Shown: in pieces, positions 1,170 through 28,231 of the stretch
How positions within the stretch are numbered: the first letter of the stretch is position 1
Layout of the letters: each line of letters opens with the position of its first letter
Source: Heterodontus francisci
Lineage: Eukaryota
DNA: 64,000 bases
Direction: 5' to 3'
NCBI RefSeq assembly: GCF_036365525.1
Contig: NW_027141363.1
Location: 496,001 to 560,000 of the forward strand
Program-made: the position numbers and the translations under genes
Notes under the pieces: generated by a model
The model's database searches: none
What the model saw: only the letters and a program-made list of their open reading frames with translations
Told to the model about the DNA's origin: nothing

Positions 1170-1208
1170 GGTTTTTGTTGAACTGCTCCATCTCTCTGAG
1201 TCACTGTT
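1170..1208 (-). promoter_or_regulatory. 23-RSS of V1 with non-canonical heptamer
   Basis: AACAGTG (1208-1202) + 23-nt spacer ACTCAGAGAGATGGAGCAGTTCA + perfect nonamer ACAAAAACC (1178-1170). Confidence 0.9.
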
Positions 1209-1504
1209 AGGACTCCAGGCACAGAAATACACGGCCGAGTGATTCTCCCGCAGGCTGGAGGACTCCAGGTTGAACTGGGAGTCAGTCGGCCTCTCGGCGG
1301 TGAAACCGCCCACCATCCCCTCTGGATCCACACAGTTAGCAGTACTGGAGTAAAACATCAACAGCGGCTCCTTCCCCGGGTATTGTCTGTACCAGTACAT
1401 TCCAGCAGTACTGGTGCCCTCCACTGTGCACCTCAGTTCCACTGCCTCTCCACGCAATCTGGAGACAGCGGCGGGAGTCTGGTGGATAGTCTGTGAGTTC
1501 ACAT
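1209..1504 (-). CDS. TRBV: TCR beta-type V exon (V1), TRBV30-like; open frame with Cys23, Trp41 (WYRQ) and Cys104 (YFCAWS)
   Basis: YVNSQTIHQTPAAVSRLRGEAVELRCTVEGTSTAGMYWYRQYPGKEPLLMFYS...RPTDSQFNLESSSLRENHSAVYFCAWSP closely recalls mammalian TRBV30 (SQTIHQWP..CTVEGTS..WYRQ..RPQDRQFIL..CAWS); leader-intron-V-RSS layout. Confidence 0.88.
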
Positions 1505-1624
1505 CTGGGAGGGAGATGGAGAGAAGAGCAGATCAGTAAACAGGAAACTTCTGGGAATGAAAGGGAGACAGGGAGAAGAGAGGAAAGTTATTAACGATAG
1601 TTTTTGTATTTCACACTCACTTAC

Positions 1625-1661
1625 AATGAAACAGGATTATCAGACCCAGTAACTGATACAT
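1625..1661 (-). CDS. TRBV: Leader exon of TCR V segment V1 (MYQLLGLIILFH, phase 1)
   Basis: ATG at 1661-1659, hydrophobic 12-codon signal peptide +1 nt, GTAAGT donor; splices in frame to the CAG acceptor at 1507-1505. Confidence 0.85.
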
Positions 1662-2489
1662 CTTTCACTATAACCTGTTCTCTTAATAGACACAGGAGTG
1701 AGATCAGGAGCTTCGAGTCTTGTAACGGTCCAAATCCACTCTTTTCAAATCATTGGGAGGAACATGAAGAGCATTAGGATGTGATACAATGTTGGAGACG
1801 CCCATTCACCCAGTTCAACAAATCAGAATTGAATTGGCTGCCATTCTGCTTCTCTCTCTCTCTCTCTATCTATCTCTATCTCAGTTTACCTTCCGCTCTC
1901 TTGCACTCTCTCTCTGTCTCTCTCTCTCTCTCCCCTCATGTGTCTAGGTTTATGTCTCCCACTCTCTTCCTTTCTCAGGCTCTCTCTCCCATTCTATCTC
2001 AGTCTATCTTCGCTCACTTTTTCTCTCTGACTCTCTGTCTCCTCATGTATCTAAGGTTATGTCTCCCATTCCCTCCTTCTCTCTGACTCTCCCTCTCTCT
2101 TACTCTTGTTATCTCTTCAGTTTATTTCCCTGTCTCTGTCTCTCTCTTGATCTATCTTCCTATCTGTCGCAGGCTCTTTAGCTCAGTCTCTCTTTCTCTC
2201 CATCTCTCTCTCAGTGTCTCTCTCTCTCTCTCATTATGTGTCTCTTGCTGTCTCACTGTCTTTGCCTCTATCTCTGTCTCCCTCTCTGTCTCAGTCTCTT
2301 TAACTCTACCTGTCGTTTTTTCTCTCTCTCACTGGATCTCGCTCTCTCTTTCACACACATACACTCTCTTTCTCTCTCTAAAGGAGTGGGTGTCCTTGTC
2401 CTGTTGATGTATATCAAGCTGGATCTGCATGATCTCCTGCTCTATTAGTTTTCTCACTAAATCCTTCTCAAAGCCATTGTCCGTTCCAT

Positions 2490-2555
2490 GGTCCTGGATC
2501 CCCCTCTGCTGTCCCTGTGGATAAGGTAAACACAGGGCCAGTGCATAAAAACCCA
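2490..2555 (-). promoter_or_regulatory. Second copy of the CTCF-like element, downstream of V2 RSS
   Basis: CCCTCTGCTGTCCCTGTGGA.AAGG shared with 290-352; minus core GACAGCAGAGGGGG. Confidence 0.4.
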
Positions 2556-2774
2556 GATTATTGTCATTGATTCCTGATAGTTACATTCTGAAATCTCGTG
2601 ACATCTTTATTAATCGTTCTCTGCACCCTCGGCAGTACCTGTAAATCTAGTGTGTCACTACAATCATAACTCAACTCTTTTTATTGTAATAAACACTGTC
2701 ACTCTGAATAAGGGAACAGTCGGTCAAGGTACCGAGCAATTTTATCTGAAACAGGTGTTTCCTGCTGCCTTTGA

Positions 2775-2813
2775 TGTTTTTGTTGAACTGCTCCATCTCT
2801 CTGAGTCACTGTG
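2775..2813 (-). promoter_or_regulatory. Canonical 23-RSS of V2 remnant
   Basis: CACAGTG (2813-2807) + 23-nt spacer identical to V1 + ACAAAAACA. Confidence 0.9.
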
Positions 2814-2903
2814 ATCTCTCCAGGCACAGAAATACACGGCCGAGTGATTCTCCCGCAGGCTGGAGGACTCCAGATTGAAGTCGTATTTATTTAGTCTTTG
2901 GGA
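2814..2903 (-). pseudogene. TRBV: 5'-truncated TRBV30-like V remnant (V2)
   Basis: Translates SQRLNKYDFNLESSSLRENHSAVYFCAWRD, near-identical to the 3' end of V1; a CR1 fragment starting about 2904 replaces the upstream part. Confidence 0.85.
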
Positions 2904-3235
2904 GTAGATAGAGAGAAACTATTTCCGCTGGTTTGGGAATCTAGGACTAAGAGGCCAAGACTAAAAATTAGAGCCAGACTTTTCAGGAGTGAAATTAGGA
3001 AACACTTTTACACACAATGGGTGGAGAGGTTTGAACTCTCTTCTGCTCACGGAAATTGATGCTGAATCAATTGTTAATTTGAAATCGGAGATGGATAGGT
3101 TTTTGTGATCCAAAATAAATATTAAGGGATATGGGGCAAAGGCGGGAATATGGAGTTAGATCACAGATCAGCCATGGTCTCATTGAATGGTGGTACGGAA
3201 TTGAGGGCCTGAATGGCCCCTTCCTGTTCCTGCCT
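2904..3235 (+). mobile_element. CR1-type LINE 3' fragment truncating V2
   Basis: GTAGATAGAGAGAAACTATTTCCGCTG (VDREKLFPL) and a typical CR1 3' tail. Confidence 0.7.
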
Positions 3236-3344
3236 TTGTCTTAGCAGTTCCTGCTGGCATTGAATTCTGTAATTTGGGTAAAGAATTCTCCTCAACTCCC
3301 TATCGGATTTCAGTTTTTCTCAGCTTTTATTCTCTGTTTTGTTC

Positions 3345-3860
3345 CTATCCTCTTCGTCCCCTAGTCTTTGTACAAACAGCTAATGGGAACAGTTTTTCTT
3401 TGTCTACTTTATCTAAACCTCTCTTCATTTTGTACACTTCTGTCAAATCTCCCCTCAATTTCCTTTGCTCCAAGGAGAACAACCCCAGCTTCACCAAACT
3501 AACCATGTAGCTAAAATCTCTCATCCCTGGAACCATCCCGGTAAATCTCCTCTGCACCCTCTCAAGGACCCTACATCCTTCCTAAAGTGTGGTGACCAGA
3601 ACCGGGCTCAGTACTCAAGTTGGGGCCTAACCAGAACCTCATATATGTTGAGCATAACCACCCTGCTTTTGTACTTTATACCTCTATTCATGAATCCCAA
3701 GATCCCATAAGCTTCGTGAACCTCTCTCTCAATATGTCTGCCACCTTCAAAGATCTATGCACATTAAGCCCCAGGACCCTCTGTCCTTGAACACTCTTTA
3801 GGCCTGTGTCATTAAGTCTGTATTTCCTCTCTGTCTCCCTTCTGCCAAAATGCATCACCT
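3345..3860 (-). mobile_element. CR1 LINE ORF2 C-terminal fragment
   Basis: QRRFTGMVPG..LGLFSLEQRKLRGDLTEVYK motif. Confidence 0.8.
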
Positions 3861-4499
3861 GAAAACAATGTAGTTCACTGTTAACTGCCTCTGAAATGGA
3901 CTAGCAATTCATTCAGTTAAGGGAAATTCAGCATAGGCAATGAATTCTGGCCTTGTCAGGAATGTGCACATCCCTGAATATGTGCTTCTTTATATAAAAT
4001 TCCTCCTTCTTCATTTTTCTTTCACTGTTTTCTCACTTTGCTTCCCCTCTTTACTTCCTTCAGATCATCTGTTTTAGGATATCACAAGTGTTGCTGAAAC
4101 CAGTCACTATGAACGAGCAGACTTGGGGAAATCCAGTTGTCTATTTTGTGTGGAATGGTTATGATTTGAATCTGTTTCAGAGTTAGTGGCATTGACGATT
4201 AGGTAGATGGGTCAAGTCACTGCTGCATTGCTCGCTCAGTCTTCACAGAAGCAAGTGGGACTCAGGCTGCGGTGGAGCTCCATCCCCACCTCGTGGCTGT
4301 CATGTGTAACTACAGGCACCTGTGGTTTGCACAGTGCAATTGATAAAATAGACATTATGAAGACATGCTTTGAAATTGCTCCGTCTTCCCATTTTTTATC
4401 CATTGCTTCGGCTGCTGACGCTAGTGACATCGAATTAGATAGAAGATGCAGCACAGATTCAGGCTATTCGGCCCGATAGGACCATGTTCCAGACTAGCC

Positions 4500-4775
4500 T
4501 GGGGCAGATGGCGGTGTACTTGTCATGTCACTGAGCTGGTAATCCAGAGGATGGGGCTAATCTCCAGGGGACATGCGTTCGAATCCCACCAGGTCAGATG
4601 GTGGAATTTAAATTCAAGTAATGAATAAATACAATTATTTCATTGGAAAATCTGCAATTGAATGCTAGTCTCAGTTAAGGCGCCCTGACACCCAGCTGGC
4701 TCACTCATGTCTTTTAGGGAAGGGAATCCACCGTCCTTACCTGGTCTGGTCTACATGTGACTTGAGACCCACAGA
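4500..4775 (+). mobile_element. tRNA-derived SINE, degenerate
   Basis: B-box-like GTTCGAATCCCACC followed by GATGGTGGAATTTAAATTC and a SINE-like body. Confidence 0.5.
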
Positions 4776-6164
4776 ACACAAGAAATAGGAGCAGGTGTAG
4801 ACCATATATCCCATCGAGCCTGCTCCGTCATTCAATACAATCATGGCTGATCTTGGGTTCCAATTCCACTTTCCTGCCTGCTCCCCATATCCCTTTATTT
4901 CCTGAGGGATCAAAAATCCCAGACTTAAATGTAATCAATGAAGGACCATCCACAACACTCTGGGATAGAGAATTCCAAAGATTCACAACCCTTTGAGTGA
5001 AGTCATTTCTCCTCATCTCAGTCCGGAATGATTGATCCCTTATCCTGAGATTTCTCGCTGCCTCATTTCTTGAAAAGCCGTGTAACATTTGTCAGCTTTC
5101 AATCCGATGGGACCATTCCTGAATCTTAGGAATTCTGGAAAATCATAACCAGCGCCCCCACTCTCTCTGCAGCTATCTCATTTAGAACTCTGGTATATAA
5201 TCCATCTGTTCCAGGGGACTTGTCAGATTTTAATCCCTCAAATTTCTCCAAAACTTTTTCTCAATTGATATGAATATCCTTAATTTCCTCACTCTTTTTA
5301 GGCCCCAGATAACTGCCTATTTCTGGGATGGAACTTTGTTTGATTGGCAGTGATAATATTTTTGGACCATTGTATCCAGTCCAATGGGTTGCAACCAGGA
5401 TTACTGGGTGATTTCTCTCTGCAACTTTTAATCTTTAATAAAGCTTATCTGGGCATTAAACTGCAATCTGTTTTTATATGTCTGACTCCACTCATTCTCC
5501 CGGGGATAAAGTTACTTTTGTCTGGTTGTCCACCCAATTAAATGACTGTTTGACACGGCAAGACTTTCTTTACTTTGAACGTGTGCTGATCTCTCTCTCT
5601 CTCTCTCCCACACACAAAGTCTCTCTCTGCCCACATCTATCCCGGACTTTTCCTCTCTCTCTGACGGACACTCTATCTCTCATTCATTTTTCACTCTTTT
5701 TGTACACCCTGTGTCTGCTCTTTTCCTCTAATTTCTCATTTTCCTTCCCACTCTCTCTCCATCTCTGTCTCTCTCTCGCTCTGTTACTCTCACCTCACCT
5801 TTATCTCTCCATTGATCTGTTCCCTCACTCTCAAACTCTACCTCTCCCTCACTCTCCACCTTCCTTTCTCTTTGATCTCTCTTCACATCTCTCTATCACA
5901 CTCTCTTCATCTCTGTCCAATTGAGGAGATTCTCCCTCCATTTCTCACCATCTCTTGCTCCCTCACTCTCTCCCCATCACCTATTTTCTCTCAGTCTCTC
6001 CATCTCTCTATTATTCTTTCAATCTCATTTCTCTTTCCTTCCATCACTCTCTCTTTTCTATTTCCCTCTCTATTACTTGCTCTCTAACTCTCTTGCTCTG
6101 TCTGTCCATGTTGGGTCCCTTTAAGAGTTTGGGACAGTTCTGGTGGTGCATGGTCCCTTTAAGA

Positions 6165-6600
6165 GTCTGGTGCGGACCCCTCCCCCACCCCGGGTGATCA
6201 CATGTCGCCCAAACCGCGGCTGCGCAGAGGCCGGAGGTACCTGTTGACCTCCAAACACGTGGGGCGACGCAGCCAATCAGAGCTCAGTGACGCCTTGGCG
6301 GGACTGAGGCGTCAAAAGCCGCCATGTTTGCGTGACGTCTCCCGCCGGCCGTTTATTATCGTAAAAAAGCAGCTGAAAGGAAAAGGAGAAGCGGATTCAG
6401 TTCTCGATCTCAATGGAGGAAACTTTAAAGTCTGAGCCGAGGGAGGATGCAAAAAAGCGGCGTTTAACGCGTTTGTGGAGGTGCGCATGTGCGGAACCTC
6501 CTCCCAGAGGGCAGCGCGGCCTGTCCTGCAGATAGGGGCCTTTCCTAGCCGCGGGGCATTGTGGGAGCCGCATGACGCCATTGCCCCCTCATTAACTCAA
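6165..6600. promoter_or_regulatory. CpG-island, housekeeping-type promoter
   Basis: Local CpG/GC enrichment; CACGTG 6256, CCAAT 6273, TGACG 6288 and 6333, YY1-like GCCGCCATGTTT 6318-6329, NRF1-like TGCGCATGTGCG 6482-6493, CTCF-like CTCCCAGAGGGCAG 6501-6514. Confidence 0.65.
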
Positions 6601-6799
6601 GTCAAAATCAACTCATTCCCTCTGAGCTCTCTATCCCTCCTTTTCATATTGCAGGCTGCAACGGGCTTTGTTGATAACAATTCCACCATCCCGGGTGTGA
6701 TCAGATACTCTGTCCCTTCGCAAACGATTTCCTGTCCCTCCAACAGCTTGTGCCAACGCCCGATTTATGGGTGTGTTTTCCCCTTCTGATGTTGAACTT

Positions 6800-7150
6800 T
6801 TTAGTGGCTTTTCTCCTACTGAAGTTGTTGTTTTATTTGTTTTTGTTTGTCCTCAGGAAGCTGTTCATTTCCCGTTGAAATTGTTGCATTTGTTGATGCT
6901 TTTTCTCCTGTTCAGGTTGTTGTTGCATTTGTTGGTGTTTTTCTCCTGTTCAGGTTGTTGTTACATTTGTTGGTGTTGCCCTCCTGTTGAGGTTGTTGTT
7001 GCATTTGTTGGTGTTTTTCTCCTGTTGAGGTTGTTGTTACATTTGTTTGTGTATCCCTCCTGTTGAGGTTGTTGTTACATTTGTTGGTGTTTTTTCTCCT
7101 GTTGAGGTTGTTGTTACATTTGCTGGTGTTTTTCTGCTGTTGAGGTTGTT
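6800..7150. repeat. About 39-bp minisatellite (GTTGTTGTTACATTTGTTGGTGTTTTTCTCCTGTTGAG)n
   Basis: Visible tandem units. Confidence 0.8.
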
Positions 7151-7392
7151 ATTGAATTGATTTGAAAAACACGTTTGCTAACACTTTTCAAGATGAGAAG
7201 CTGCATTCAACTGAACACCAGGATCTGATTCTCTGTCACGCTTAAAGCACTACCTTCGATTAGTGAGGAGTCAGTCTCTGAAATCAATGTCCCAGTGCTG
7301 TGGTAACATAAAATTGCCACTGAAAATAAAAACAGCTGACTGATGTTCGGAGAGAGGAGAGAAAGAGAGACAGACAGACAGAAAGAGACACA

Positions 7393-9463
7393 ATCTGTAA
7401 CCTCATGGCCTGGCATATCTGCCACTCTACCATGACCATCAAGCCAGGAGACCAACCCTGGTTCAATGAAGAGTGCAGGAGGGCATGCCAGGAGCAGCAC
7501 CAGGCATACCTCAAAATGAGGTGTCAACCTGGGGAAGCTACAACACAGGACTATCTGCATGCCAAACTGCGTAGGCAGCATTCTATAGACAGAGCTAAGC
7601 GATCCCATAACCAACGGATCAGATCTAAGCTCTGCAGTCCTGCCATAACCAGCCATGAATGGTGGTGGACAATTAAACAACTAACCGGAGGAGATGGCTC
7701 CACAAATATCGCCATCCTCAATGATGGGGGAGCCCAGCACATCAGTGCGAAAGATAAGGCAGAAGCATTTGCAAAAATCTTCAGCCAGAAGTGCCCAGTT
7801 GATGATCCATCTCGGCCTCCTCCTGAAGTCCCCAGCATTACAGAGGTCAGACTTCAGCCAATTCGATTCACTCCGCGTGATATCAAGAAACGACTGAAGA
7901 CACTGGACACTGCAAAGGCTATGGGTCCTGACAATATTTTGGCAATAGCACTGAAGACTTGTGCTCCAGAACTTGCCGCACCCCTCGCCAAGCTGTTCCA
8001 GTATAGCTACAACACTGACATCTACCCGGCAATGTGGAAAATTGCCCAGGTATGTCCTGTACACAAAAAGCAGGACAAGCCCAACCCGGCCAATTACCGC
8101 CCCATCAGTCTACTCTCAATCATCAGTAAAGTGATGGAAGGTGTCATCAACAGTGCCATCAAGCAGCACTTGCTTAGCAATAACCTGCTCAGTGACGCTC
8201 AGTTTGGGTCCCACCAGGGCCACTCAGCTCCTGACCTCATTACAGCCTTGGTTCAAAAATGGAAAAAAGAGCTGAAGTCAAGAGGTGAGGTGAGAGTGAC
8301 TGCCCTTGACATCAAGGCAGCATTTGACCGAGTATGGCATCAAGGAGCCCTAGCAAAACTGAGGTCAATGGGAATCAGGGGGAAAACCCTCCACCTGCTG
8401 GAGTCATACCTAGCGCAAAGGAAGATGGTTGTGGTTGTTGGAGATCAATCATCTGAGCTCCAGGACATCACTGCAGGAGTTCCTCAGGGTAGTGTTCTAG
8501 GCCAAACCATCTTCAGCTGCTTCATCAATGACCTTCCTTCAATCATAAGGTCAGAAGTTGGGATGTTCGCTGATGATTGCACAATCTTCAGCACCATTCG
8601 TGACTCCTCAGATACTGAAGCAGTCCGTGTAGAAATGCAGCAAGACCTGGACAATATCCAGGCTTGGGCTGATAAGTGGCAAGTAACATTCGTGCCACAC
8701 AAATGCCAGGCAATGACCATCTCCAACAAGAGAGAATCTAACCATCTCCCCTTGACATTCAATGGCATTACCATCGCTGAATCCCCAACTATCAACATCC
8801 TAGGGGTTACCATTGACCAGAAACTGAACTGGAGTAGCCATATAAACACATGGCTACAAGAGCAGGACAGAGGCTAGGAATCCTGTGGCTAGTAACTCAC
8901 CTCCTGACTCCCCAAAGCCTGTCCACCATCTACAAGGTACAAGTCAGGAGAGTGATGGAATACTCTCCTCTTGCCTGAATTGGTGCAGCTCCAACAACAC
9001 TCAAGAAGCTCGACACCATCCAGGACAAAGCAGCCCGCTTGATTGGCACCCCATCCACAAACATTCACTCCATCCACCACCAACGCACAGTGACAGCAGT
9101 GTGTACCATCTACAAGATGCACTGCAGCAATGCACCAAGGTTACTCAGGCAGCACCTTCCAAACCCGCGACCTCTACCAACTAGAAGGACGAGGGCAGCA
9201 AATGCGTGGGAACATCACCACCTGCAAGTTCCCCTCCAAGTCACCCACCATCCTGAATTGGAACTATATTGCCGTTCCTTCACTGTCACTGGGTCAAAAT
9301 CCTGGAACACCCTTCCGAACAGCACTGTGGGAATACCTACCTCACATGGACTGCAGTGGTTCAAGAAGGCAGCTCACCAACACCATCTGAAGGGCATTTA
9401 GGGATGGGCAATAAGTGCTGGCTTGGCCAGCGACGCCCTCATCCCATGAATGAATGAAAAAAA
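7393..9463 (+). mobile_element. 5'-truncated non-LTR retrotransposon (CR1/L2 group), RT ORF 7405-8877, frameshifted near its end, with 3' tail
   Basis: NYRPISLLS, LDIKAAFDRVWH, GVPQGSVLG, FADD motifs; ends in ATGAATGAATGAAAAAAAA. Confidence 0.92.
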
Positions 9464-9465
9464 AG

Positions 9466-10910
9466 GATGCTGGGAGGATGTTCCCCTTGTGGGGGAGTCT
9501 AGAACGAGGGGGCACAGTTTAAAAATAAAGGGTCTCCCATTTATGACAAAGATGGGGAGGAATTTTTTTTCTCTCAGTGGTTGATTAGACTTTGGAATTC
9601 TCTTCCCCAGAGAGCAGTGGAGGTTGGGTCATTGAATATATTCAAGGCTGAGTTAGACAGATTTATCATCGACAAGGGAGTCAAGGGTTATGGGGGGCAG
9701 ACAGGAAAGTGGAGTTAAGGTCACTATCAGATCAGTCATGATCTTAGAGAATGGCAGAACAGGCTCGATGGGCTGAATGGCCTGCTCCTGTTCCTATTTG
9801 TTCGGATCTTGTGGATAAAATGGAGGGTTTTCTCTCCACTTTTTAAGCCATTTTTACAGCAGAGACAGGGCCATGTGTAATATAAACAGAGACAGGGTCT
9901 AGTGCAGACCTAACTAGTGCATTGATAACTGAGACTGGTGTAAAAGGTATCGAGGATACAGAATTCTAAATATACATTCAGGGGAACTTTTTCAGGCCAG
10001 TACATAGCAAGGACAACAAGAGATGGGTCAGTTTTACACTTAGTTTTAGGGAATGAAGCTGGGCCGGTGGAAGGTGATTTAGAAAAAGTGGACTGGAAAA
10101 AGCTACTTGAAGGTAAATGAGTGTCAGAGCAGTGAGAGGGAATCATTTCAACTTGGAGGATTTATTATTCCAGAGTTATTTTTTATTTTCAGAGAAATTC
10201 AAATTCACAAGAACCCAATGTGGGATTTGAACTCCTGCTTTTTCAGTCATTAGCTCAGGCTTTCAGATTACAAACTGTAAAAGACATTCACCTTCCTCCT
10301 GTTGTTGTCTGACTGTCTCAGCTTTTGTATATTGTCCCCAATCTTGTTCTTTCATGTGTCTAAAGACTTTGATGTTATTCAGACATTGATAAACCACTTC
10401 ATTCTCTCAGGACATCGGCTTAAAGACATTCAGGGACACAATCCACAATCTAATTCACACCCTATTCAAGCAACCAAAATCTTCAACTCCATTCAAACAC
10501 CCCGATATCCTGTCCCTGCACAGATAACTGACAGTTCCACAAAGCAGGAATGTCTGAATGAGAAACCACATTTACCTGACACAATCCAAGCTCCAAATTG
10601 AATCATTAAGATATCGAAAATACCACAGAAATGTGACTTGTTCCTTGTAACAGTGAGACTGAAACATTTCAGGGAACTATTCAACCAAGAAGGATTCCGA
10701 GAAAAGTCAGGATCAGGATTGAAAGAGAGAGAGAGAGTGAAATGGGGAGAGAAAGAAAGAGACTGTCAGCTCCTGTATGTGTAAGGCCTCTCTCTTCCTG
10801 CACCCATTTTAACATTGTACCATTTAGTTTATATTGCCTCTCCCAGTCTTCCTTCCAAAATCCATCACTTCACATTTCTCAGCATTGAAGTTAACCTGCC
10901 TGTGTCTGTC
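9466..10910 (+). repeat. About 1.45-kb inverted segmental duplication, arm 1
   Basis: Reverse complement of 36920-38370; mirrored ORFs share the coordinate sum 47836. Confidence 0.92.
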
Positions 10911-11780
10911 CAATGATAGGTTGGATAGTAAACTGTCAAGAGGACATAAAGAGTCTACAAAGAGATTTCGATAGGTAAAGTGAGTGGACAAACATTTGGC
11001 AGATGGAGTAGAATGTGTCAGGAAGAATAAATAGCAGTATATTATTGAAATGGAGAGAGACTGCAGAACTGTACGGTACAGAGGGATCTGGGGGTCCTGG
11101 TACATGAATCACTAAATGTTACTATGCAGGTACAGCGAGTGGTTCGAAGGCAAATGGAACTGTGTTGCTTATTACAAGGGGAATAGAATATAAAAATAGT
11201 GAAGTGTTGTTACAGCTGTACAGGACCTTAGACCACATCTGGAGTAATGTGGACTGTTTTGGTCTCCTTACTTAATCAAGGATATAACTGCATTAGAAGC
11301 AGTTCAGAGAAGGTTCACTCGACTGATACCTGGGATGAAGGGGTTATCTTATGAGGAAAGGTTGAACAGGTTGGGCCGATACCCACTGGAGTTTAGAAGA
11401 ATGAGAGGTGATCTTATTGAAACATCTCAGGTCCTGAGGGGAACTGGACAGGGTGGATGCTGAGAGGATGTTTCCCCTTGTCGGGGAGTCTAGAACGAGG
11501 GGACACAATTTAAAATGAGGGCTCTCCCATTTAAGACTGAGATGAGGAGAAATGTTTTTCTCTCAGAGGGTGGTTAGTCTGTGGAATTCTCTTCCCCAGA
11601 GAGCAGTGGAGGCTGGATCATTGAATATATTCAAGGCTGAGTTAGATAGATTTATGATCAACCAGGGAGTCGAGGGTTATGGGGGGCAGACAGGAAAGTG
11701 GAGTTGAGTTCCCAATCAGATCAGCCATCGAATGGGAGAGCAGGCTCGATGGGCTGAATGGCCTACTCCTGCTCCTAATT
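10910..11780 (+). mobile_element. Degenerate CR1 LINE 3' portion
   Basis: GTTCAGAGAAGGTTCACT..GAGGAAAGGTTGAACAGGTTGGGC..GGTGATCTTATTGAAAC and CR1 tail. Confidence 0.8.
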
Positions 11781-13495
11781 CATTTGTTTGTGTGTGTTCC
11801 ATTTCACCAGACTGCCTCTATCCTCCTGAAGTCTGCTACTAGTCCCTTCCCTGTTTATTACATTATAGATGTCACAAACATTGGTAAACATTGAAGTTAT
11901 GCCCTGGAAACCCAAGTCCAAGTTATTAGTATATATCAAAAAGATCAGTGGTCCTAATAAGATCCTCCACTGTATATCTCCCTCCAGTCTGAAACAACCA
12001 TTGTCCACTCTCTCAGCCAATGTCATATCCACTCAGCCACTGCCCCTTTCATCCATGGAGCACCAATATTGATAACTAGTCAATTAGGAGGCACCATTAA
12101 GTCCTTCCCATGAGGACACTGGTCCCAGACCTCTCTGCTTGCACTCTCCCATCAAAATTCCCCAGACAGGTACAGCATGGATTAGATACAGAGTAATGCT
12201 CCTTCTACACTGTCCCATCCAACACTCCCAGGGCAGGAACATCATGGGGTGGATACAGAGTGAATCTCACTCTACACTGTCCGAAACAGACAGAGAGAGA
12301 GAGACAGAAAGAGAAAGAGAGAAAGAGAGAGACACAGACAGACAGGGTGACAGGGAGTGAAAGAAGGATATTTAACATCGGATATAGGAAGAGGAGGAGG
12401 CAATTTAACCCCTCAACCCTGTTCCCGCATTCAATGAGATCAGGGCTGATCTGTGATCTAACTAACACCATATATCCCACCTTTGACCCTTATCTCTTAA
12501 TACCTTTTGTTAACAAGAATCTATCAATCCCAGATTTAAAAATTAACAATGAAGCCAGCATGAATTCCTGTTTGCAGAAGAGAGATCTAAAATGACAAAG
12601 AAATCCAAAGGAATGATTGGACAGGCTGGGGTTGTTTTCTTTGGAACAGAGGAGGTTGAGGGGAGATGGAGTTGAGGTGTATAAAATTATGAGGGGCCTC
12701 GATAGAGTGGATAGGGAGGACCTATTTACCTTAGCACAGAGGTGCATAAAAAAGGGCACAGATTTCAAAATGTCCACAACCAATATCATGAGGGTGTGAT
12801 GGCTCCCGCAGTGGAATAGCTTGCTGGATGTTTAAAATGGAGGATATTCCCTCTGGATCTCTCCGGATGTTTCTCTCTCCATATCTATCTCTTATATGTT
12901 TGTACACACAGCAGTGAAGGATTACATCAAATTATTATATCTGACATTCTCCCTTTCAATCCACCCCAACAATATCTCTCTCTCCAACCTTGTCCCTCTC
13001 TACAGCCCTCTCTCTCTGTCTGCATATCTAACCCTCTCTCCCTCTGACTCTATCCTTGTGTCAGAGATAGCAGGAGGGAGAGACAGAGAGAGGAAGACAG
13101 AGAGAGAATGTTGAAGGAACTGTACTCTCTTCCTAAGCTGTGCTGAACCTGCTCTCGGAGTGTTTGATGGGCTACATTAATCGGCCGTGTGCAGTCCTGT
13201 ATCAGGCTGTGAAGAAGCAGAGCATGTTCAGTACACAACGGGTCAAAGGGAACGATTCACTCCTCTCTGCTACTGGGAAGAGAGACTGACCTTAACATCA
13301 AGGCAGCGTTTGACCGAGTGTGGCCTTGAGGAGCCCGAGTAAAACTGAAGTCAGTGGGAATCTGCTGGTTGGAATCAAACCGAGCACAAAGGAAGATGGT
13401 TGTGGTTGTTGGAGGTCAATCAGCTCAGTCCCAGGACATCACTGCAGGAAAATAGAGACAAGATAGATGAAAACTTTCAGTCTGTCATAAAAAGT

Positions 13496-14390
13496 CCATA
13501 CAAATAGGAAATGGTTGATCTTGGAACCTTTAATCATGTCTCTGATGATTCATACAGTGCAAAGGCGAAACACCTCTCCAGATCCGTCTCTGACTGGAAC
13601 ACCTGCCTCCAGACGGCGGCTTCAGCATCTGTTCAAAACTGTTAATCCACTTGTCTCTCAGTCTGTCGGTGTCTTTTGAAGAATTTTCACAATGACTGCA
13701 GTTCAGTGCGGTGAAGAACTTAACCCTATAACTCCCGTTTAGCAGAAGGGGGGGAAATGAAACTGTCTTGGCCCTGAAACAAGGCAGCAGGTTGACGGGT
13801 CTTATTGGATCATAGAATCATGCGGGATAAATCCAGGCCATTCAGCCCATCGATCCTGGCCTAGCTGTTTGAAAGAGCGACCTCCTCCCATCTCTCTTCA
13901 TCTTACCCTATCAACAGATTCTTCTATTCCTTTCTCACTCATGTATTTATTCAGCTCCCCTTTAACTGCATCGTCTCTATTCGACCTCAACCCATTCCAT
14001 TGGTCGCTAATTCCACATTCTCACCGCTCCCTGGGTTAAAGAACCTCCTCCTGAATTCCCAATTGGATTTATTAAGTACTACCTTAAATTTATGATCCCT
14101 GGTTTTCATCTTCCCTGTCCAATTACTGCCACTCCCTGTTCTTTCTGAATATCCCTGCACTTGATCTTGCAGCTTGTCTGTCTCCTTCCCTACATTACAA
14201 CAGTTACTGCATTTCAAAATATATTTGACTGGTTGAGGCTGGAGTGAAGCAGAGAGCTGTCGGGCCGAATGGCGCCGATCTGTGCATTAGCTTCCATCGA
14301 CTTCTGTGCCACAAGCGCCAACACGAGTCGAGTAGAAGATTATAACTAATGGCTGAAACAGGTTCAGGGTCTGACACTGAAACGCCTGCA
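13496..14390 (+). repeat. About 0.9-kb direct repeat, copy 1 (left of V3 cassette)
   Basis: Paralogous to 18032-18920; ORFs 13987-14217 and 18520-18750 are near-identical. Confidence 0.9.
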
Positions 14391-15059
14391 GAATCGGTGC
14401 TTGCAGTTACACCTGGAGCCACTAGGTGCCAGTGTTACTCCACTGTCGCCGCTGCCCAGAACATGCTCAGACAGAGTGAGCTTCACCCACAGCAGCTCCA
14501 CAGGTCAACTTGGCTGCTTCTGAAATGTTTCACTTCTCAACTATTTCACACAAAATATTCCGGCAATGGAAGATGAGGTAGATGAGTTTTTAATCTGATC
14601 GTTTACGGGTCATTAAGTATCAATTATGTCAGTGCAACCTTGAAATATTTGCACCCAGATGCCAGTTTGTAGATTTCCAGGTTCTATTTTACAATTGCAC
14701 TGTCCCAGGTGTTTGTAGGAAACTAGGAGAGAGCCTGAATGTCCATCCTGACTTTCGCACAACTCCCACATCTATCGTGCCAAGTGTAAAGTAACATTTT
14801 CCCCCCATGCTCCCTGTTTCCAGGTTGAATAACGGGAGATCTGGTGCTCACTTCATGTGATCAAGTGAGAGACAGTTTTCAGAACAGAAGGCTTCACACT
14901 GACATGTTGTGATATCCTCACCCTGCTGGTGGAAGGGCTGTATTAATCAGGTCTGTTCATTGAGGAGGTGAAACTCAGTATGTTGAGGTTTTAAGAGCGG
15001 ATTTGCTTTTGCAGAACATTGCAAAACATTAAATTAACACAGAAGCTGGAGAGAGTTCA

Positions 15060-15665
15060 CCTTCTTAGGCAGTTCCCCGGGGTTGAGGATGACTTGCTTC
15101 CACTCCGGTTCAATGGGTTCTGAGATGGCTGATGAGTCCAGTGTATGATCTGCAGACTCTGTCACATGAGGTGCAGGTGGTGCTTGTAGGATCAGGTAGG
15201 TGAGTAGTTTGCAGGTTTGTGCGCTCCCTCCGATGCCTCGGCCTTACCTCTGCATGTTCCTTAAGTTCCTCGAGGTGTCCAATGCCTTCCCGTATGTCCT
15301 TTCTCCATCTGGGCTTGGTCAGGAGCCAGGGTCTCCAAGGAGTTGACGCGGATGTTTCATCTCTCCAGGGATGTTGTGAGGACATCTCTGAAGCATTCCC
15401 GCTGTCCTCCTGGGAGTCTCCTGCAACGACCAAGTTCTGAGTAGATCAGTTGCTATGAGGAGTCTGGTGGCAGGAATGTGAATGACATGTCCCAGCCAGT
15501 GGAGCTCTTTTTGGGTGTTTCGCGCCCTGACACTAGACAGGTTGGTTTGGGAGAGGACGATGCTGTTGGACTATCTGTCTTGCCACTGGATTTGGTGGAT
15601 AATGCGGAGGCACCTCTGGTGCTACTTCTCCTGTGCTTCGAGGTGTCTACTGTCGGTTCTCCAAG
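15060..15665 (-). mobile_element. RTE-clade LINE 3' fragment
   Basis: C-terminal CTSCDRVCRSYTGLISHLRTH motif typical of RTE ORF ends. Confidence 0.7.
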
Positions 15666-16869
15666 GTAAGGTCAGTGTGGAGGTGTATTTGTGAGCAGTG
15701 ACTGACGGGACAAAGCAGTTCAGAGTTATCCACTGTCTGGACAAAGAATCACACACAGACTGACCTCAAACTCACGTAATTTTACCAAGGAGTCAAAGAG
15801 CAGGGCCTGATCCATAGTTTTATCCTCATGTACCTGGGTTCCACACTTGGACTGTACATATTTTTTGGTATCCAACCTCCTTGGTTAAAACACACTGGGT
15901 GCACTGTGAACATTTCAGGTCTCCTCATACCTTGGTTAGACTTCATTTGGAGAACCGTGCACAGTTCTGGTCTCATTATACTTTGGTTGGACGAAGACTG
16001 GAGCACTGTGCACAGTTCTGACCACATTTAGATCACGGTATAATTATACATAACAGTAAGGATCGAACAGGCTGGGGTCCTTCTCCAGAAATGAGGGGTG
16101 CCCAGATAAGAAGTCTTTAATATTATTCATAGGTTTGATAGGATAGATGTAGAGAAGATATTTTCACTTGAGGCCCAAGACCAGAATTATAAGCTATAAA
16201 ATAGTCACGAAAAATCCAAATTCAGGACAAACCTCATTTCCCAGAGATTGGTGAGAATGGGGAACTAACCACCATAGGCAGTGGTAGAGGCAAATAGTAT
16301 TCAGTGGGAAACTAGTAGACATACGAGGCAGAAAGGATTGACAGGAGATGCTGAGAAGATGAGATAAAGAGGGATGAAAGGATGTATCTGTGGAACATCA
16401 ACACCTGTATAGATCCGTTCACCTGATGCTGTGTTCTATATTGTCTGCAATTCTATATAGTCAACGTCAGTATCTGAAAGAGGGGAGAAAGTTGGAAAGC
16501 CGATCTGGAACTTCCCAAGGAGTTCTACAGCCAATGAAGTGCTTCTGTTGAATTACAGGCATATTGGTCTTTGTTGCAAGGGGGATGGGAGTACAAGAAT
16601 AAGGAAGTCGTATTACACTTGTATTGGGTCTTGGTGAGAACACACCTGGAATACAGTGTGCACATATTTGGACAGGGCTCCGAATGATCGGGCTGCACAT
16701 GTCAATGAAACAGAACTGCAGTTCCAGAAAGCGATTAACAGGCGTCTAACATTGGTCCGTCCCCGGAAATGAAAGAAAACTGGGTCCCGCCTATCCGAAT
16801 GATAAAGTGATGGAGAGGGAAGCTGTGAATTTCAGTCAGTGCCCAGAACTTTGAGATATTCGACAATAA

Positions 16870-16900
16870 AAGTGCTCAGTCATTTCATATAAAACCACAC
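16870..16900 (+). promoter_or_regulatory. Candidate V3 promoter (TATA box)
   Basis: TATAAAA at 16888-16894, about 27 nt upstream of the leader ATG; TCAGTCA AP-1/CRE-like word just 5'. Confidence 0.45.
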
Positions 16901-16920
16901 GGATCCTTCACCCTCCAGAG

Positions 16921-16963
16921 ATGTCTGTCTCTCAGCTCTGGGTTGTGTTGTTGGTGTTAAGGG
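16921..16963 (+). CDS. TRBV: Leader exon of V3 (MSVSQLWVVLLVLR, phase 1)
   Basis: Hydrophobic 14 codons +1 nt, GTAAGG donor, in frame with the TTACAG acceptor ending at 17235. Confidence 0.85.
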
Positions 16964-17235
16964 GTAAGGAGGTGTCTGAACTGTGAGGTTCCAATGATGT
17001 ACATGTGTCTCTGCTTCTCAGTCTCTGTCTGTCTTTGTCTCTCTCCTTCTCCCTCTATATTTCTTTCTCTGTCTCTCATTATCTCTCGCTCTCTGCCTCT
17101 CTGCCTCTAACTGGTCCCCACCGCTCTCTCTATCTCTGTCTGCCCGCCTCTACCACTTCTTGTTGATAACGATATAGATATTGTCCCTGGGTTAATCTCT
17201 TTCTTTCACTCTCTCTCTCCCTCTCTGTTTTACAG

Positions 17236-17534
17236 ATGTGGGGGCTGTGTTGATCCAACAGACTCCCTCTTCCATATCCCATTCCCCAGGCTCTCCAGTC
17301 AGGATCGAGCGTATTTACACTGAAGCAACAGCTGGCTCCTATTTCTACTGGTACCGGTGGCGTCCGGACCGTGAGCCCCAGAACCTTTTCTATTCCTACG
17401 GTGCTGGAACGGTCAGTCCCTCTGGTGAGGTGGACGGTTTCACCGCCAGGAGACCCGACAACACCCATTTTTACCTGGAGTCCTCCAGCCTGTGGATGAA
17501 TCAATCAACCATGTATTACTGTGCCTGGAGACAG
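17236..17534 (+). pseudogene. TRBV: TCR beta-type V exon (V3), TRBV30-related; open frame but first Cys replaced by Arg (ORF/pseudogene)
   Basis: DVGAVLIQQTPSSISHSPGSPVRIE[R]IYTEATAGSYFYWYRWRPDREPQNLFYS...FTARRPDNTHFYLESSSLWMNQSTMYYCAWRQ; CGT at 17310-17312 where TGT is expected. Confidence 0.8.
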
Positions 17535-17573
17535 CACAGTGACTCAGAAAGGCGCCGGAGTTCAGCAAAAACT
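17535..17573 (+). promoter_or_regulatory. 23-RSS of V3
   Basis: CACAGTG + 23-nt spacer ACTCAGAAAGGCGCCGGAGTTCA + GCAAAAACT. Confidence 0.9.
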
Positions 17574-20169: not shown

Positions 20170-22435
20170 TTTATTGTCTCTCTCTCTGCCTTTTTCCCTC
20201 CTTCTCTCTCAGTCTCTCTCTCAATCTGTGTGTTTCACTGTGTGTTTTTTTCCCCTCTCTCTGTGTTTTCTCTCTCTCTCCCCGTGTTTCTCTTCCCCCC
20301 TCTCTGTTTTTTCTCTCTCGGTTTTTTTCTCTCGCTCTCCCCGTGTTTCTCTCCCGCTCTCTGTTTTTTCTCTTTCTCTCTCGTGTTTTCTCTCTCTCTC
20401 TCTNNNNNNNNNNNNNNNNNNNNNNNNNNNNNNNNNNNNNNNNNNNNNNNNNNNNNNNNNNNNNNNNNNNNNNNNNNNNNNNNNNNNNNNNNNNNNNNNN
20501 NNNNNNNNNNNNNNNNNNNNNNNNNNNNNNNNNNNNNNNNNNNNNNNNNNNNNNNNNNNNNNNNNNNNNNNNNNNNNNNNNNNNNNNNTGTTTTCTCTCT
20601 CTCTCTCTGGGTTTTCTCTCTCTTGTGTTTTCTCTCTCTCTCTGGGTTTTCTCTCTCTTGTGTTTTCTCTCTCTCCCCATGTTTCTCTCCCTCTCTGTTT
20701 TTTCTCTCTCGGTTTTTTTCTCTCGCTCTCCCCGTGTTTCTCTCCCGCTCTCTGTTTTTTCTCTTTCTCTCTCGTGTTTTCTCTCTCTCTCTCTGGGTTT
20801 TCTCTCTCTTGTGTTTTCTCTCTCTCTCTCTGGGTTTTCTCTCTCTTGTGTTTTCTCTCTCTCTCTCTCTGGGTTTTCTCTCTCTTGTGTTTTCTCTCTC
20901 TCTCTCTCTGGGTTTTCTCTCTCTTGTGTTTTCTCTCTCTCTGGGTTTTTTCTCTTTCTCTCTCTTGTGTTTTCTCTCTCTCTCTCTGGGTATTTTCTCT
21001 TTCTCTCTCTCGTGTTTTCTCTCTCTCTCTCTCTGGGTTTTTTCTCTCTCGTGTTTTCTCTCTCTCTCTCTGGGTATTTTCTCTCTCGTGTTTTCTCTCT
21101 CTCTCTCTCTGGGTTTTTTCTCTCTCGTGTTTTCTCTCTCTCTCTCTGGGTTTTCTCTCTCTCGTGTTTTCTCTCTCTCTCTCTGGGTATTTTCTCTCTC
21201 GTGTTTTCTCTCTCTCTCTCTCTGGGTTTTTCTCTCTCGTGTTTTCTCTCTCTCTCTGGGTTTTCTCTCTCTCGTGTTTTCTCTCTCTCTCTCGTGTTTT
21301 CTCTCTCTCTCTCTGGGTTTTCTCTCTCTCGTGTTTTCTCTCTCTCTCTCTGGGTATTTTCTCTCTCGTGTTTTCTCTCTCTCTCTCTCTGGGTTTTTTC
21401 TCTCTCGTGTTTTCTCTCTCTCTCTGGGTTTTCTCTCTCTCGTGTTTTCTCTCTCTCTCTCGTGTTTTCTCTCTCTCTCTCGTGTTTTCTCTCTCTCTCT
21501 CTGGGTATTTTCTCTCTTGTGTTTTCTCTCTTTCTCAGGGTTGTTTCTCTCTCTGGGTGTTTCTGCCCCCCCTGATCCAGACTCCTATCTAAATACAAGA
21601 CCCCCCGGGGACTGACCCCCCCCCCCCCCAGTAAATACCCCACAGGGACAGACCCCCATCTAAATACCCCTCCCCCCCTGGGAACAGACTCCTTTCTAAA
21701 TACCACCCCCCCCCCCCCAGGAACAGACTCTCTCGTGTTTTCTCTCTCTCTCTCTCTGGGTTTTTTCTCTCTCGTGTTTTCTCTCTCTCTCTCTGGGTAT
21801 TTTCTCTCTCGTGTTTTCTCTCTCTCTCTCTGGGTTTTTTCTCTCTCGTGTTTTCTCTCTCTCTCTCTGGGTTTTCTCTCTCTCGTGTTTTCTCTCTCTC
21901 TGGGTATTTTCTCTTTCTCTCTCTCGTGTTTTCTCTCTCTCTCTCTCTGGGTTTTTTCTCTCTCGTGTTTTCTCTCTCTCTCTCTGGGTATTTTCTCTCT
22001 CGTGTTTTCTCTCTCTCTCTCTGGGTTTTCTCTCTCTCGTGTTTTCTCTCTCTCTCTCTGGGTATTTTCTCTCTCGTGTTTTCTCTCTCTCTCTCTCTGG
22101 GTTTTTCTCTCTCGTGTTTTCTCTCTCTCTCTGGGTTTTCTCTCTCTCGTGTTTTCTCTCTCTCTCTCGTGTTTTCTCTCTCTCTCTCTGGGTTTTCTCT
22201 CTCTCGTGTTTTCTCTCTCTCTCTCTGGGTATTTTCTCTCTCGTGTTTTCTCTCTCTCTCTCTCTGGGTTTTTTCTCTCTCGTGTTTTCTCTCTCTCTCT
22301 GGGTTTTCTCTCTCTCGTGTTTTCTCTCTCTCTCTCGTGTTTTCTCTCTCTCTCTCGTGTTTTCTCTCTCTCTCTCTGGGTATTTTCTCTCTTGTGTTTT
22401 CTCTCTTTCTCAGGGTTGTTTCTCTCTCTGGGTGT
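20170..22435. repeat. CT-rich satellite (CTGGGTTTTCTCTCTCGTGTTTTCTCTCT)n
   Basis: Visible tandem units; internal duplication of about 0.87 kb. Confidence 0.9.
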
Positions 22436-23300
22436 TTCTGCCCCCCTGATCCAGACTCCTATCTAAATACAAGACCCCCCGGGGACTGACCCCCCCCCCC
22501 CCCAGTAAATACCCCACAGGGACAGACCCCCATCTAAATACCCCTCCCCCCCTGGGAACAGACTCCTTTCTAAATACCACCCCCCCCCCCCCCCCCCCCC
22601 CCCCCAGGAACAGACTCCTATCTAAATACCCCACCACCCCCGAGGACCAGACTCCCATTTAAATACCCCCCCCCCCCCCCCTGGGAACAGACTCCTTTCT
22701 AAATCACCCCCGCCCCCTGAACAAACTCCCATCTAAATACCCTCCCGGGAACAGACTCCTATCTAAATACCCCACCACCCCCGAGGAACAGACCCCCATC
22801 TAAATACCCCCCCCCCGGGAACAGACTCCTATCTAAATACCACCCCCCCCCCCAACCCCCCCTGATCCAGACGCCCATCTAAATACCCCCAGGAACAGAC
22901 CCCCCCCTTTCTCATTGTCTTTCTCCATCACTGTCTCTGTTTCTCTCTCTCTCTTTCTCTGTCCGTGACTCCATTTGTTCCTCCCTTACACCATCTCCCA
23001 CTCTCTCTGATTATGTCTCTCTCTCTCTCTCTCTCTGTGTCCCTCTCTTGTGCTGTCTGTCTCTCTCATTGCCTCTCTTTCTCTCCCTGCAATTTTTTAA
23101 CACCCCCCAGACTCACATCTAAATACCCCACAGGGACAGACTCCTATCTAAATACCCCCCGGGAACAGACTCTCATCTAAATACCCCCCGGGAACAGACT
23201 CTCATCTAAATGCCCCCCCGGGAACAGACCCCCATCTAAATAACCCCCCCCCCATTAACTGACCCCAATCTAATTCTCCCCCCCAATGTAAACACCCCCC
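22436..23300. repeat. Poly-C minisatellite (ATCTAAATACCCCCCCGGGAACAGACTCC)n
   Basis: Repeated CAGACTCC-ATCTAAATA-Cn units; G-run rich on the minus strand. Confidence 0.8.
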
Positions 23301-26905: not shown

Positions 26906-28231
26906 AGTCAGATCCCAGCAATGGTGACACTTCAACATTCAGTTTACCAAGGTTTTGAGTGTGGATTTCTCTCTCTCTCTCTCTCTCTTTTTCTCTCCAT
27001 CTATTTCTGCCCCAGTGTTGTAATGTGGGAATGGATGCAAGGAATGTATGCACAGCAGGATCCCACAATGTGATGATAGCCAGATATCCCATCACAGTCC
27101 TCAGAAAATGCTAAACTCCATCTTTAAACTTTTCACAAGCCTTTATACAGCTTCACGTTCAGCTCTTGTAATTATTGGCCCTCAGGCGCAGTTGACACTC
27201 AATGAATTAATTTTGAAAGTGGTCTTCGCTGTTGTAATGCAGGAAACCAGCAGGCAATCTGTGCACAGAAAGATCCCACAGGCAGCAATATGATAACATG
27301 CAGATAATCTGTTTTTAGTGATGTAAGTTTGGAGATCCCAGAGAGAGGAACATTCCTGCTGTTTGAAAATCTCAAACACTCCTCTCCCTGTCTTTCTCCT
27401 GCTCTCCTCTCCTCCCCCCCCCCCCACACACTCATCCACATCTGTTTCTTTTTCTCTCGATCTGGCATTTAATCTGGATTGAAACGTCCTCTGCAGTGTT
27501 TCTGTCACCGTTTAAAATAACCACACGTCACATTGTGGCTCCTATTGATTAATGGTTAAAATAGAGAAAGTGCGGGGGGAGAGAAAAGCAGAGGAAGATG
27601 GAGAGAAAACAGAGAAATCCACACTCAGACCCTCAGGAAGCTGAATTTTAACGTGCCCTCATTGTTGTCATGTAGGAAATGCTCCAGGGCACTAGATGCA
27701 CAGCAAGATCCCACAAGCAGCCATGTGATATTTGCTAGATTTCAGTCCCCAGAAAGGGCAAAACACCCTCTTTAAACTGGGAACAAGCTGCAGATTCTGT
27801 CTCACCATTTCAAATAACGACAAATCACATTGCTGTGTGTGGCATGTTTTTTTATTTATTAAAGTTTGAAATGGAAAAGGTGAGTGTGAAACAGACAGAG
27901 AAGAGAAAGCATGGGGGGAGATGGGGACATAGGGAAAGAATGTGGAGACAGAGAGAAAGCTAACTTCAGAACTACAGTAAAATGAATTAAAATGGGCACC
28001 GTGCATCTTATTTAACTGTTAGCTTCATAGCATTGCCCAAAACAGCAGCAAACCTCACAGACAGGGCTGGAAGGAGCAAGTGGTAAATGGGACTCCCTCC
28101 TGGGGCTGCTCCTTTAACCCCAGGCTTTCAACCTGTTTAAAACTCCAGGGCCCCAATCCGACAGGAACTAGTTTAACCCAGGGCCCCAGAGAGGAAATTA
28201 AACCTCGGGCTAATAAACAGACACAACTCAC

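Follow-up and report, generated by a model that had tools for sequence, protein, structure and literature searches.

The 64,000-nt stretch of the Heterodontus francisci (horn shark) genome analyzed here, hereafter the window, carries three TCR-beta V (TRBV) segments of the TRBV30 clade, every one of them damaged. The most probable reading places them at the far end of a V array that follows a D-J-C unit, in an assembly where 23 such units derive from one V-D-Jn-C-inverted-V block through recent segmental duplication.

An initial annotation had described three V segments ending in CAW[S/R], each with a 23-RSS. The three ends and their 23-bp spacers were recovered within the same limits (Table 1), but the V1 heptamer proved not to be intact; thus, V2 and V3 combine a CAC-starting heptamer with the 23-bp spacer, whereas V1 retains spacer and nonamer only. 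The AACAGTG variant recurs in 13 of 29 V1-like loci (among the loci listed). Because RAG cleavage requires the CAC of the heptamer, the V1 RSS is likely, judging from its sequence, to be cut poorly or not at all. The segments had also been counted as three members, and for V1 this is supported by the full TRBV gene structure (leader exon, phase-1 intron, and V exon with two Cys and Trp). The damage to all three had been overlooked: besides the altered V1 heptamer, V2 is a 22-codon stub and V3 has lost the first Cys.

Table 1. Features of the V segments in the window (positions counted from its first nucleotide; V1 spans 1170..1661).
Feature	Position	Strand	Description	Evidence
V1 23-RSS	1170..1208	-	AACAGTG heptamer (first C of CAC gone), 23-bp spacer, nonamer ACAAAAACC	sequence
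V1 V-exon	1209..1504	-	frame open, both Cys and Trp, ends CAWSP, TRBV30 lineage	
V1 leader intron	1505..1624	-	120 nt, GT..AG	sequence; skipped in read contigs of family members
V1 leader exon	1625..1661	-	37 nt from ATG	
V2 23-RSS	2775..2813	-	CACAGTG-23-ACAAAAACA	
V2 stub	2814..2879	-	last 22 codons of a V1-family segment, ends CAWRD	
V3 leader exon	16921..16963	+		sequence
V3 V-exon	17236..17534	+	frame open, Arg (CGT) in place of first Cys	
V3 23-RSS	17535..17573	+	CACAGTG-23-GCAAAAACT	

Homology of V2 to V1 is confined to positions 2741-2879, and a dispersed repeat occupies the expected place of its 5′ part. The same pair of V1 and stub is found again at 111 kb and 472 kb of the window contig (C1317). 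V3, in the opposite orientation to V1 and V2, belongs to a second TRBV30-lineage subfamily that is common to catshark. Both longer segments match the Pfam V-set (V1, 1e-12; V3, 1.1e-8), and they share 45 of 98 amino acids with each other (61% of nucleotides) and 44 (V1) and 35 (V3) of 97 with donkey TRBV30. The signature stretches that had first suggested this lineage (SQTIHQ, CTVEGTS, RPTDSQFNL, and CAWS) are all present in V1. Bamboo shark proteins are among the close relatives of V1, and a near-length protein search with V1 as query yielded no candidate. Beyond V1-V3, a scan of the window for V-type Y/F-C-A-W ends returned none, and Rfam gave no match within it. All three segments are probably non-functional or close to it, and are in themselves ordinary decaying copies.

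The expected linkage to TRB D-J-C genes was evident on the window contig itself, which carries two D-J-C units. Across the assembly, 23 D elements and 21 constant genes were counted, together with ~590 V ends. All of these lie on seven small contigs (0.3-2 Mb, ~8 Mb together), whereas the contigs bearing other matches measure tens to hundreds of Mb. A D, 14 of the 23 being recovered by the initial D pattern, was located 20-29 kb upstream and on the same strand for all 21 constant exons. All eight units examined have a single D (12-RSS, 23-RSS) ahead of a J array, which numbers 15-17 segments where it was retrieved in full, and the J sets are not alike between units. The constant exon is 100% identical to that of the horn shark TCR-beta cDNA AAA61563.1 (row P0158), whose V is of the family found beside D, and 62-69% identical to TCR-beta records of other sharks. 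This multiplication of the whole D-J-C unit had escaped the initial annotation.

The 21 constant exons reduce to 11 distinct DNA sequences with nine variable columns, namely eight silent third positions and one Val/Ile. Among 20 copies (a motif filter removed copy L111, which is present in the 21-exon tally), variable sites amount to 7 of 279 in the exon vs 247 of 3000 in the flank. Constant copies within one contig are separated by 27-101 mismatches per ~3.2 kb, and divergence is 0.7-5% in 26 of 28 unit pairs; the two exceptions (0.01% and 0.68%) both involve unit C1317:28k or its near twin. Since differences between the constant copies are almost confined to silent sites, many of these copies are real paralogues, although some assembly redundancy may be present. 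A genuine but smaller amplification, with both haplotypes or overlapping ends on unplaced contigs and ~6-12 haploid units, comes only a little short of an even chance. Unit C1317:28k differs from C779:719k at 2 of 20,000 bases, one of the pair lying at a contig end, and five near-identical sets across contigs take in 12 of the 20 copies; hence, the unit count is perhaps inflated by haplotype or overlap copies. The 13 sequence types among these 20 copies (≤8 mismatches), the 7 of 23 units at or near contig ends, and the small size of the TRB contigs point in the same direction. Against this, contig C407 alone has six units, five of which were compared and lie 51-98 mismatches apart, and the 11 exon sequences require at least six loci even with both haplotypes present. 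Furthermore, the 15 Eph loci (17 matches) occur once each on large contigs, which argues that the assembly is not doubled throughout. None of these matches of the Eph ligand-binding exon falls on the seven TRB contigs, so that the EPHB6 synteny foreseen by the initial annotation was not recovered on these short contigs, and the 100 kb around a divergent Eph match on contig C44 hold no V. Read depth was discarded as a measure of copy number for want of a single-copy control and because read contigs drop variants. Constant regions in runs X1 and X3 collapsed into single long pieces (depth 42-73), a neutral outcome for the unit count, and all 26 listed differences in range in these read contigs are present among the constant copies of the genome. 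Returning to the favored scenario, recent segmental duplication of one V-D-Jn-C-inverted-V block would have generated the 23 units, with purifying selection or gene conversion presumably keeping the constant exons uniform while V copies were born and lost.

TRBV30-type V ends number 354 in the genome vs none in the reversed-pattern control, and are therefore not due to chance; the multi-member family proposed at the outset was thus too modest a description, and the single-member trait of the TRBV30 clade fails here. A further 75 ends belong to a related family and 161 to four other families (reversed controls, 0). A looser V-end pattern (517 matches) was abandoned, as 23 among its first 100 entries lay outside the locus and the single one checked, on C204, was satellite. 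In all 17 units with enough flank (4 of the 21 C have a contig end no more than 20 kb away), the first V behind C is an inverted TRBV30-lineage segment, and in the six units scanned directly it is of the same gene type and 26-38 kb away. These 17 segments derive from a single ancestral unit and are not independent. V1 and V2 conform to this layout: from a distance of ~193 kb on its 3′ side, they point back toward the C at C1317:304 kb; V3 points away. The inverted orientation is not exclusive to the TRBV30 lineage: on C407, 71 of 80 TRBV30-clade V face a C end vs 20 of 32 V of other families. Many TRBV30-clade V also sit 5′ of D, and 13 of the 24 CAWS segments on C1317 face a D.

The inverted TRBV30-type V behind C was likely inherited from the common ancestor of sharks and bony vertebrates. 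That sharks gained this position independently, by duplication and inversion, with only the V lineage being ancient, is a rather unlikely alternative, to which the heavy shuffling of the region, with V and units on both strands, lends some weight, as do the axolotl clade members, which are not inverted according to the available part of PMC11754216. However, the same C-proximal gene type at 26-38 kb in six units indicates that the inverted V predates the amplification, and both bamboo shark C genes have opposed V arrays, of whatever V family, behind them in the portion of the published map consulted.

As for the V lineage itself, V1 and V3 cluster with donkey TRBV30 and bony-fish, amphibian, and turtle relatives in a 23-row clade (95/92), in agreement with the first assignment. 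Three methods returned this clade (89 in a 187-row tree, 96/91 in an 84-row tree, and 95/92) from an alignment of 92 columns that excludes the CAW end and in which mammals are represented by donkey TRBV30 (row P0154) and one mammal-like row, human and mouse being absent. AU tests rejected a shark-only (p 0.007) and a mammal-only (p 0.0003) TRBV clade, while keeping both a clade of the bony members (p 0.66) and a sister relationship of the V1 subfamily to mammalian TRBV30 (p 0.21). Sturgeon, tarpon, a reedfish gene named TRBV30, newt, caecilian, and turtle fall inside the clade, as does a second shark family. V3 clusters with a catshark gene (100/99), so V1 and V3 parted long ago, as their marked divergence had suggested. 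It is improbable that the TRBV30 likeness reflects slow evolution or kept ancestral residues instead of common descent: the alignment has only 92 columns, the inner branches of the clade are open, and the 84-row tree contains long-branch misplacements, yet the clade persists under three methods with the CAW end excluded, accommodates intermediate taxa from sturgeon to turtle, and is accompanied by a common position behind C that does not depend on the tree.

The outgroup rows were assigned to TRG, TRA/D, and NAR-TCR by characteristic motifs instead of record names. Membership of the window segments in one of those loci, the outcome that the initial annotation had named as contrary to its proposal, is most improbable: the best stretch of the second-ranked solved-structure match is a TRAV-type domain and two TRAV-like rows on a long branch fall inside the clade in the 84-row tree, but a 98-support branch in the 187-row tree separates V1/V3 and the TRBV from those same rows, and both the position among TRB D-J-C units and the in-frame join of a family member to a TRB J establish TRB membership.

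That join came from transcript data. The V1 leader intron is spliced out in three contigs of run X5 and one of X6, both regarded as RNA from their GT..AG joints, whereas neither X11 nor the DNA run X1 shows this; the check covers V1-family members at ≥88% likeness. In one X6 contig, the CAWS codons run in frame into a catalogued TRB J. V1-family V segments are thus spliced and joined to a TRB J, as observed in one sample and at the level of the family, without assignment to the V1 of the window or to an inversion. Intact members would be cut by RAG and joined to D-J by inversion, like TRBV30, or else, where the partner unit is farther away and oriented alike, by deletion.

Our literature search found no description of TRBV30-like inverted V arrays or multiplied TRB units for this shark. 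In the horn shark, Rast and Litman in 1994 and Hawke et al. in 1996 reportedly distinguished seven V families, noted several constant genes, and considered a cluster layout possible; to our knowledge, those reports provide no genomic map and do not give number, layout, or TRBV30 position. A shark TRB map is absent from the accessible parts of PMC5931798 and PMC5278385, and the five TRB terms sought are absent from PMC12227049. Mammalian TRBV30, mouse TRBV31, opossum TRBV28, and the amniote 3′-inverted TRBV share with the shark genes a common clade (described for mammals and amniotes in the portions available of PMC2275272, PMC11754216, and PMC11264764), the CAW end, the 23-RSS, and a member inverted just 3′ of C. 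What sets the shark apart is that the lineage, rather than being a single gene, runs to hundreds of copies, falls into at least two old subfamilies, and has many members 5′ of D as well. Single membership is not universal in the clade, since tuatara has five inverted V according to the partial source text. As far as the accessible sections go, the inversion has been traced to salmonids and some amphibians (PMC11754216), the origin of the reverse gene was called not elucidated in 2024 (PMC11264764), and TCR loci were described as translocons across all lineages (PMC2275272).

The bamboo shark (Chiloscyllium punctatum) TRB, in the part of PMC10322711 supplementary file 16 at hand, resembles the present locus in its two opposed D-J-C units and in the opposed V array that faces each C from the 3′ side, but comprises 2 C, 2 D, 14 J, and 35 V vs 21 C, 23 D, and ~590 V ends here. 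Repeated V(n)-D-J-C or D-J-C units, some of them opposed, also appear in the available extracts on bichir (five units; same file), axolotl (five D-J-C and six C; PMC12529555), and Atlantic salmon (four loci; PMC10464911). In comparison with these partially consulted maps, this assembly has four to five times more units, with 15-17 J each where counted, over ~8 Mb of contigs.

A count of 13-23 units would far exceed the largest multi-unit TRB loci in the published accounts compared (four to six). Shark antibody genes are multicluster arrays. We tentatively propose, as a reading that falls somewhat below probable, that the TCR-beta locus of this shark is a multicluster array of ~20 working V-D-Jn-C units, each with its own inverted TRBV30-type V, that this inverted gene is ancestral in jawed vertebrates, and that a T cell chooses among ~40 D-J-C copies for one beta chain. 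With as many as 13-23 units, allelic exclusion among many TCR clusters would become testable, since the constant exons can be told apart by their silent differences. The inverted V behind C also offers a concrete answer on the origin of the reverse gene, namely that the layout is likely older than the split between sharks and bony vertebrates.

The three V segments of the window are damaged members of an already known gene kind, TRBV. The initial annotation had correctly placed three V-type ends with 23-bp-spacer signals at their limits, as the window sequence confirms. A V segment is disabled by loss of CAC in the heptamer of its recombination signal or of a conserved cysteine. No segment here is therefore cleanly functional: the V1 heptamer reads AACAGTG, V2 retains the last 22 codons from a V1-type segment and has a sound signal of its own, and V3 has Arg at the first-Cys position, where close relatives retain Cys. 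All three are probably dead or nearly so. The V2 homology with V1-type genes ends at 2879, where a dispersed repeat adjoins, and the V2-V3 interval holds a reverse-transcriptase remnant that we take to be of LINE type. The V1-type gene and its 3' stub form a module that recurs on the window's contig, C1317. AACAGTG was common to 13 of the 29 V1-like copies displayed (genome loci L001-L030), across at least two sequence groups, and therefore the damaged signal was copied along. To the right of V3, beyond the array edge, begins a tandem unit of ~36.3 kb that is either a very recent duplication or an assembly artefact; its copies, C1317:560-600 kb included, are 99.98-100% identical, pieces of it still match in C1317 samples at 640 kb to 1.0 Mb, and the sampled stretches of this tandem region held no V segments.

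Features of the window and of contigs C1317 and C407 of the same assembly
Feature	Position	Strand	Remark
V1 leader exon	window 1625-1661	minus	sequence
V1 V exon	window 1209-1504	minus	open frame, both cysteines
V1-type gene plus 3' stub	window 1209-2879		frame intact; stub 1.6 kb off
Same module	C1317:111-112.7 kb; C1317:472.5-474.2 kb		
LINE-type remnant	window 7168-9460		sequence
V3 leader exon	window 16921-16963	plus	sequence
V3 V exon	window 17236-17534	plus	Arg replaces first Cys
~36.3-kb tandem unit	window 20594-27723; 56859-64000		
Lone V	C1317:165986-166306	minus	intact
Second small V group	C1317:1251799-1303328	both	
Constant-exon-like pieces	C407:320526, 503078, 1521557; C1317:320818		59-62% identical
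SNAD1-matching frame	C407:160002-160457 (L216:2-457)	plus	open; Pfam E 2.6e-10

The assignment of these segments to the TRBV30 lineage, put forward from the sequence alone, also holds. Their closest proteins are shark and ray genes, and the best single-domain matches among solved structures are the TCR beta chains of Mel5 and relatives, which presumably use TRBV30. For tree building, 384 V domains were reduced to 187 by redundancy filtering, then to a hand-picked 84 and finally to 48 TRBV-type rows; the alignments end at the second Cys and thus leave the CAW end out of the trees. V1 and V3 grouped with donkey TRBV30 with supports of 89 (187 rows), 96/91 (84) and 95/92 (48). Also in this clade are a reedfish gene named TRBV30, a second family from sharks, a gene of a side-necked turtle, and genes of sturgeon, tarpon, anchovy, newt, caecilian and turtle. 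Constraints uniting all 17 shark and ray rows or all 9 mammal-type rows were rejected by AU tests (p 0.007 and 0.0003, respectively). Two TRAV-like rows sat on a long branch within this clade in the 84-row tree, but instead joined other TRAV-like rows in the 187-row tree. Neither of the large trees placed the lone V of C1317 within the TRBV groups.

Searches of the genome with V1 and V3 each returned at least 150 matches on the same seven contigs, at 71-99% identity for V1 and, for ~125 of those listed, at ≥67% for V3. A D-type pattern matched 14 times on six of these contigs versus once in the control, and a spacer-based one 23 times versus none; all 23 D elements consist of a 12-RSS, a 13-nt core and a 23-RSS. 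J segments come after D in 8/8 units fetched, and 15-17 J precede a constant gene (C) in the three fetched far enough. The constant exon occurs in 21 copies on six contigs with 99-100% protein identity, every one with a D on the same strand 20-29 kb upstream, while the two further D elements sit at the ends of contig C761. Six records labelled Heterodontus francisci, among them a named T-cell receptor homolog, match this exon at full identity; seven records from other sharks are 62-69% identical, and five automatic gene models carry it. Tight genome-wide patterns uncovered 354 TRBV30-type V ends, while a related family contributed 75 and four other families together 161, each with 0 in the control; the first 100 matches listed for the TRBV30-type and four-family patterns all lie on locus contigs. 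The synteny with D, J and C that the initial annotation had proposed as a check was found, V families sharing contigs with D, J runs and constant exons. A stretch at C204:4687500-4690000 (L204) was rejected as a V end, being a short-period satellite that imitates CAWR codons and heptamer. A V-domain HMM gave 59 matches on C1317 1-600 kb, in seven families plus strays (by a crude rule 40 intact, 16 defective, 3 unclassified), and the second small V group of this contig lies ~950 kb from its nearest D-J-C. On C407, a frame matching SNAD1, a secreted AID/APOBEC-like deaminase, lies ~44 kb from the contig's first TRBV30-type V end, with a V fragment in the same 10-kb stretch.

We then weighed real copies against assembly redundancy. 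The 21 constant exons represent 11 distinct DNA sequences, with eight silent and one conservative variable column, and 7/279 sites vary in the exon versus 247/3000 in the flanks (20 copies). This variation is almost only silent, whereas sequence errors would also have altered the protein. Same-contig copies show 27-101 mismatches in ~3.2 kb. When eight units were compared in 28 pairs, divergence was 1.6-5.0% for 25 pairs, 0.7% for two and 0.01% for one. Five near-identical cross-contig sets take in 12/20 copies, leaving 13 types. The 11 exon sequences require at least six loci per haploid genome, with 13 types observed and 23 as the upper figure. Eph genes are each present once in the assembly.

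From a position ~193 kb on its 3' side, V1 and V2 are directed back toward the plus-strand constant gene at C1317:304 kb; V3 is directed away from it. Four of the 21 constant genes have a contig end within 20 kb on their 3' side; behind each of the remaining 17, an inverted TRBV30-lineage segment, 26-38 kb off, is the first V found, as revealed by direct scan for six (partly from 8 kb behind C onward), by complete pattern lists for six on C407, and among the matches listed for five on C761 and C779. In the six scanned units this V is of the same gene type, with open frame and perfect signal. Unit-facing V of the TRBV30 clade on C407 are directed at the C end in 71/80 cases versus 20/32 for other families (p 0.003, the copies not being independent); on C1317, unlike C407, the majority, 13 of 24 CAWS segments, are directed at a D. 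The short pieces resembling the start of the constant exon are on the strand opposite the nearest constant gene, ~16 kb from it in 3/4, and are perhaps relics of a second constant gene between C and inverted V.

Expression was assessed by comparing contigs of sequencing runs from one sample with V1 at 88% likeness, which informs on the V1 family rather than on the window copies. Exact skipping of the V1 leader intron is seen in contigs of X5 and X6 but not in those of X11 or of the DNA run X1, and in one X6 contig the CAWS codons run in frame into a J known from the fetched units. GT..AG joints between constant exons, from which X5 and X6 were taken as RNA, occur in these two runs and in neither X1 nor X3.

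Horn shark papers of the 1990s and a nurse shark paper of 2010 may already mention several constant genes or likeness to this V family. Outside these, and outside the supplementary tree of PMC11754216, which takes in nurse shark, the literature as far as searched held no paper placing shark V genes with TRBV30 or mapping this locus. A 3'-inverted TRBV clade is described in amniotes and also in salmonids and some amphibians (PMC11754216; PMC2275272), the origin of the reverse (inverted) gene is called unresolved (PMC11264764), and bichir, axolotl and salmon have multi-unit TRB loci of 4-6 units. In bamboo shark, two units stand in opposed orientation, and behind each C gene lies an opposed V array; the likeness is one of layout. 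What is new is the variant of layout around V1-V3, the segments themselves being of known kind.

Every unit would work as an ordinary TRB cassette, in which RAG would first join D to J and next V to D-J, a D-facing V by deletion and one facing the C end by inversion. Recent block duplications and inversions probably multiplied the cassette, the first inverted V behind it and portions of the arrays, the constant exons remaining uniform while V copies would decay. V1, V2 and V3 would then be three decayed V copies at the edge of the array.
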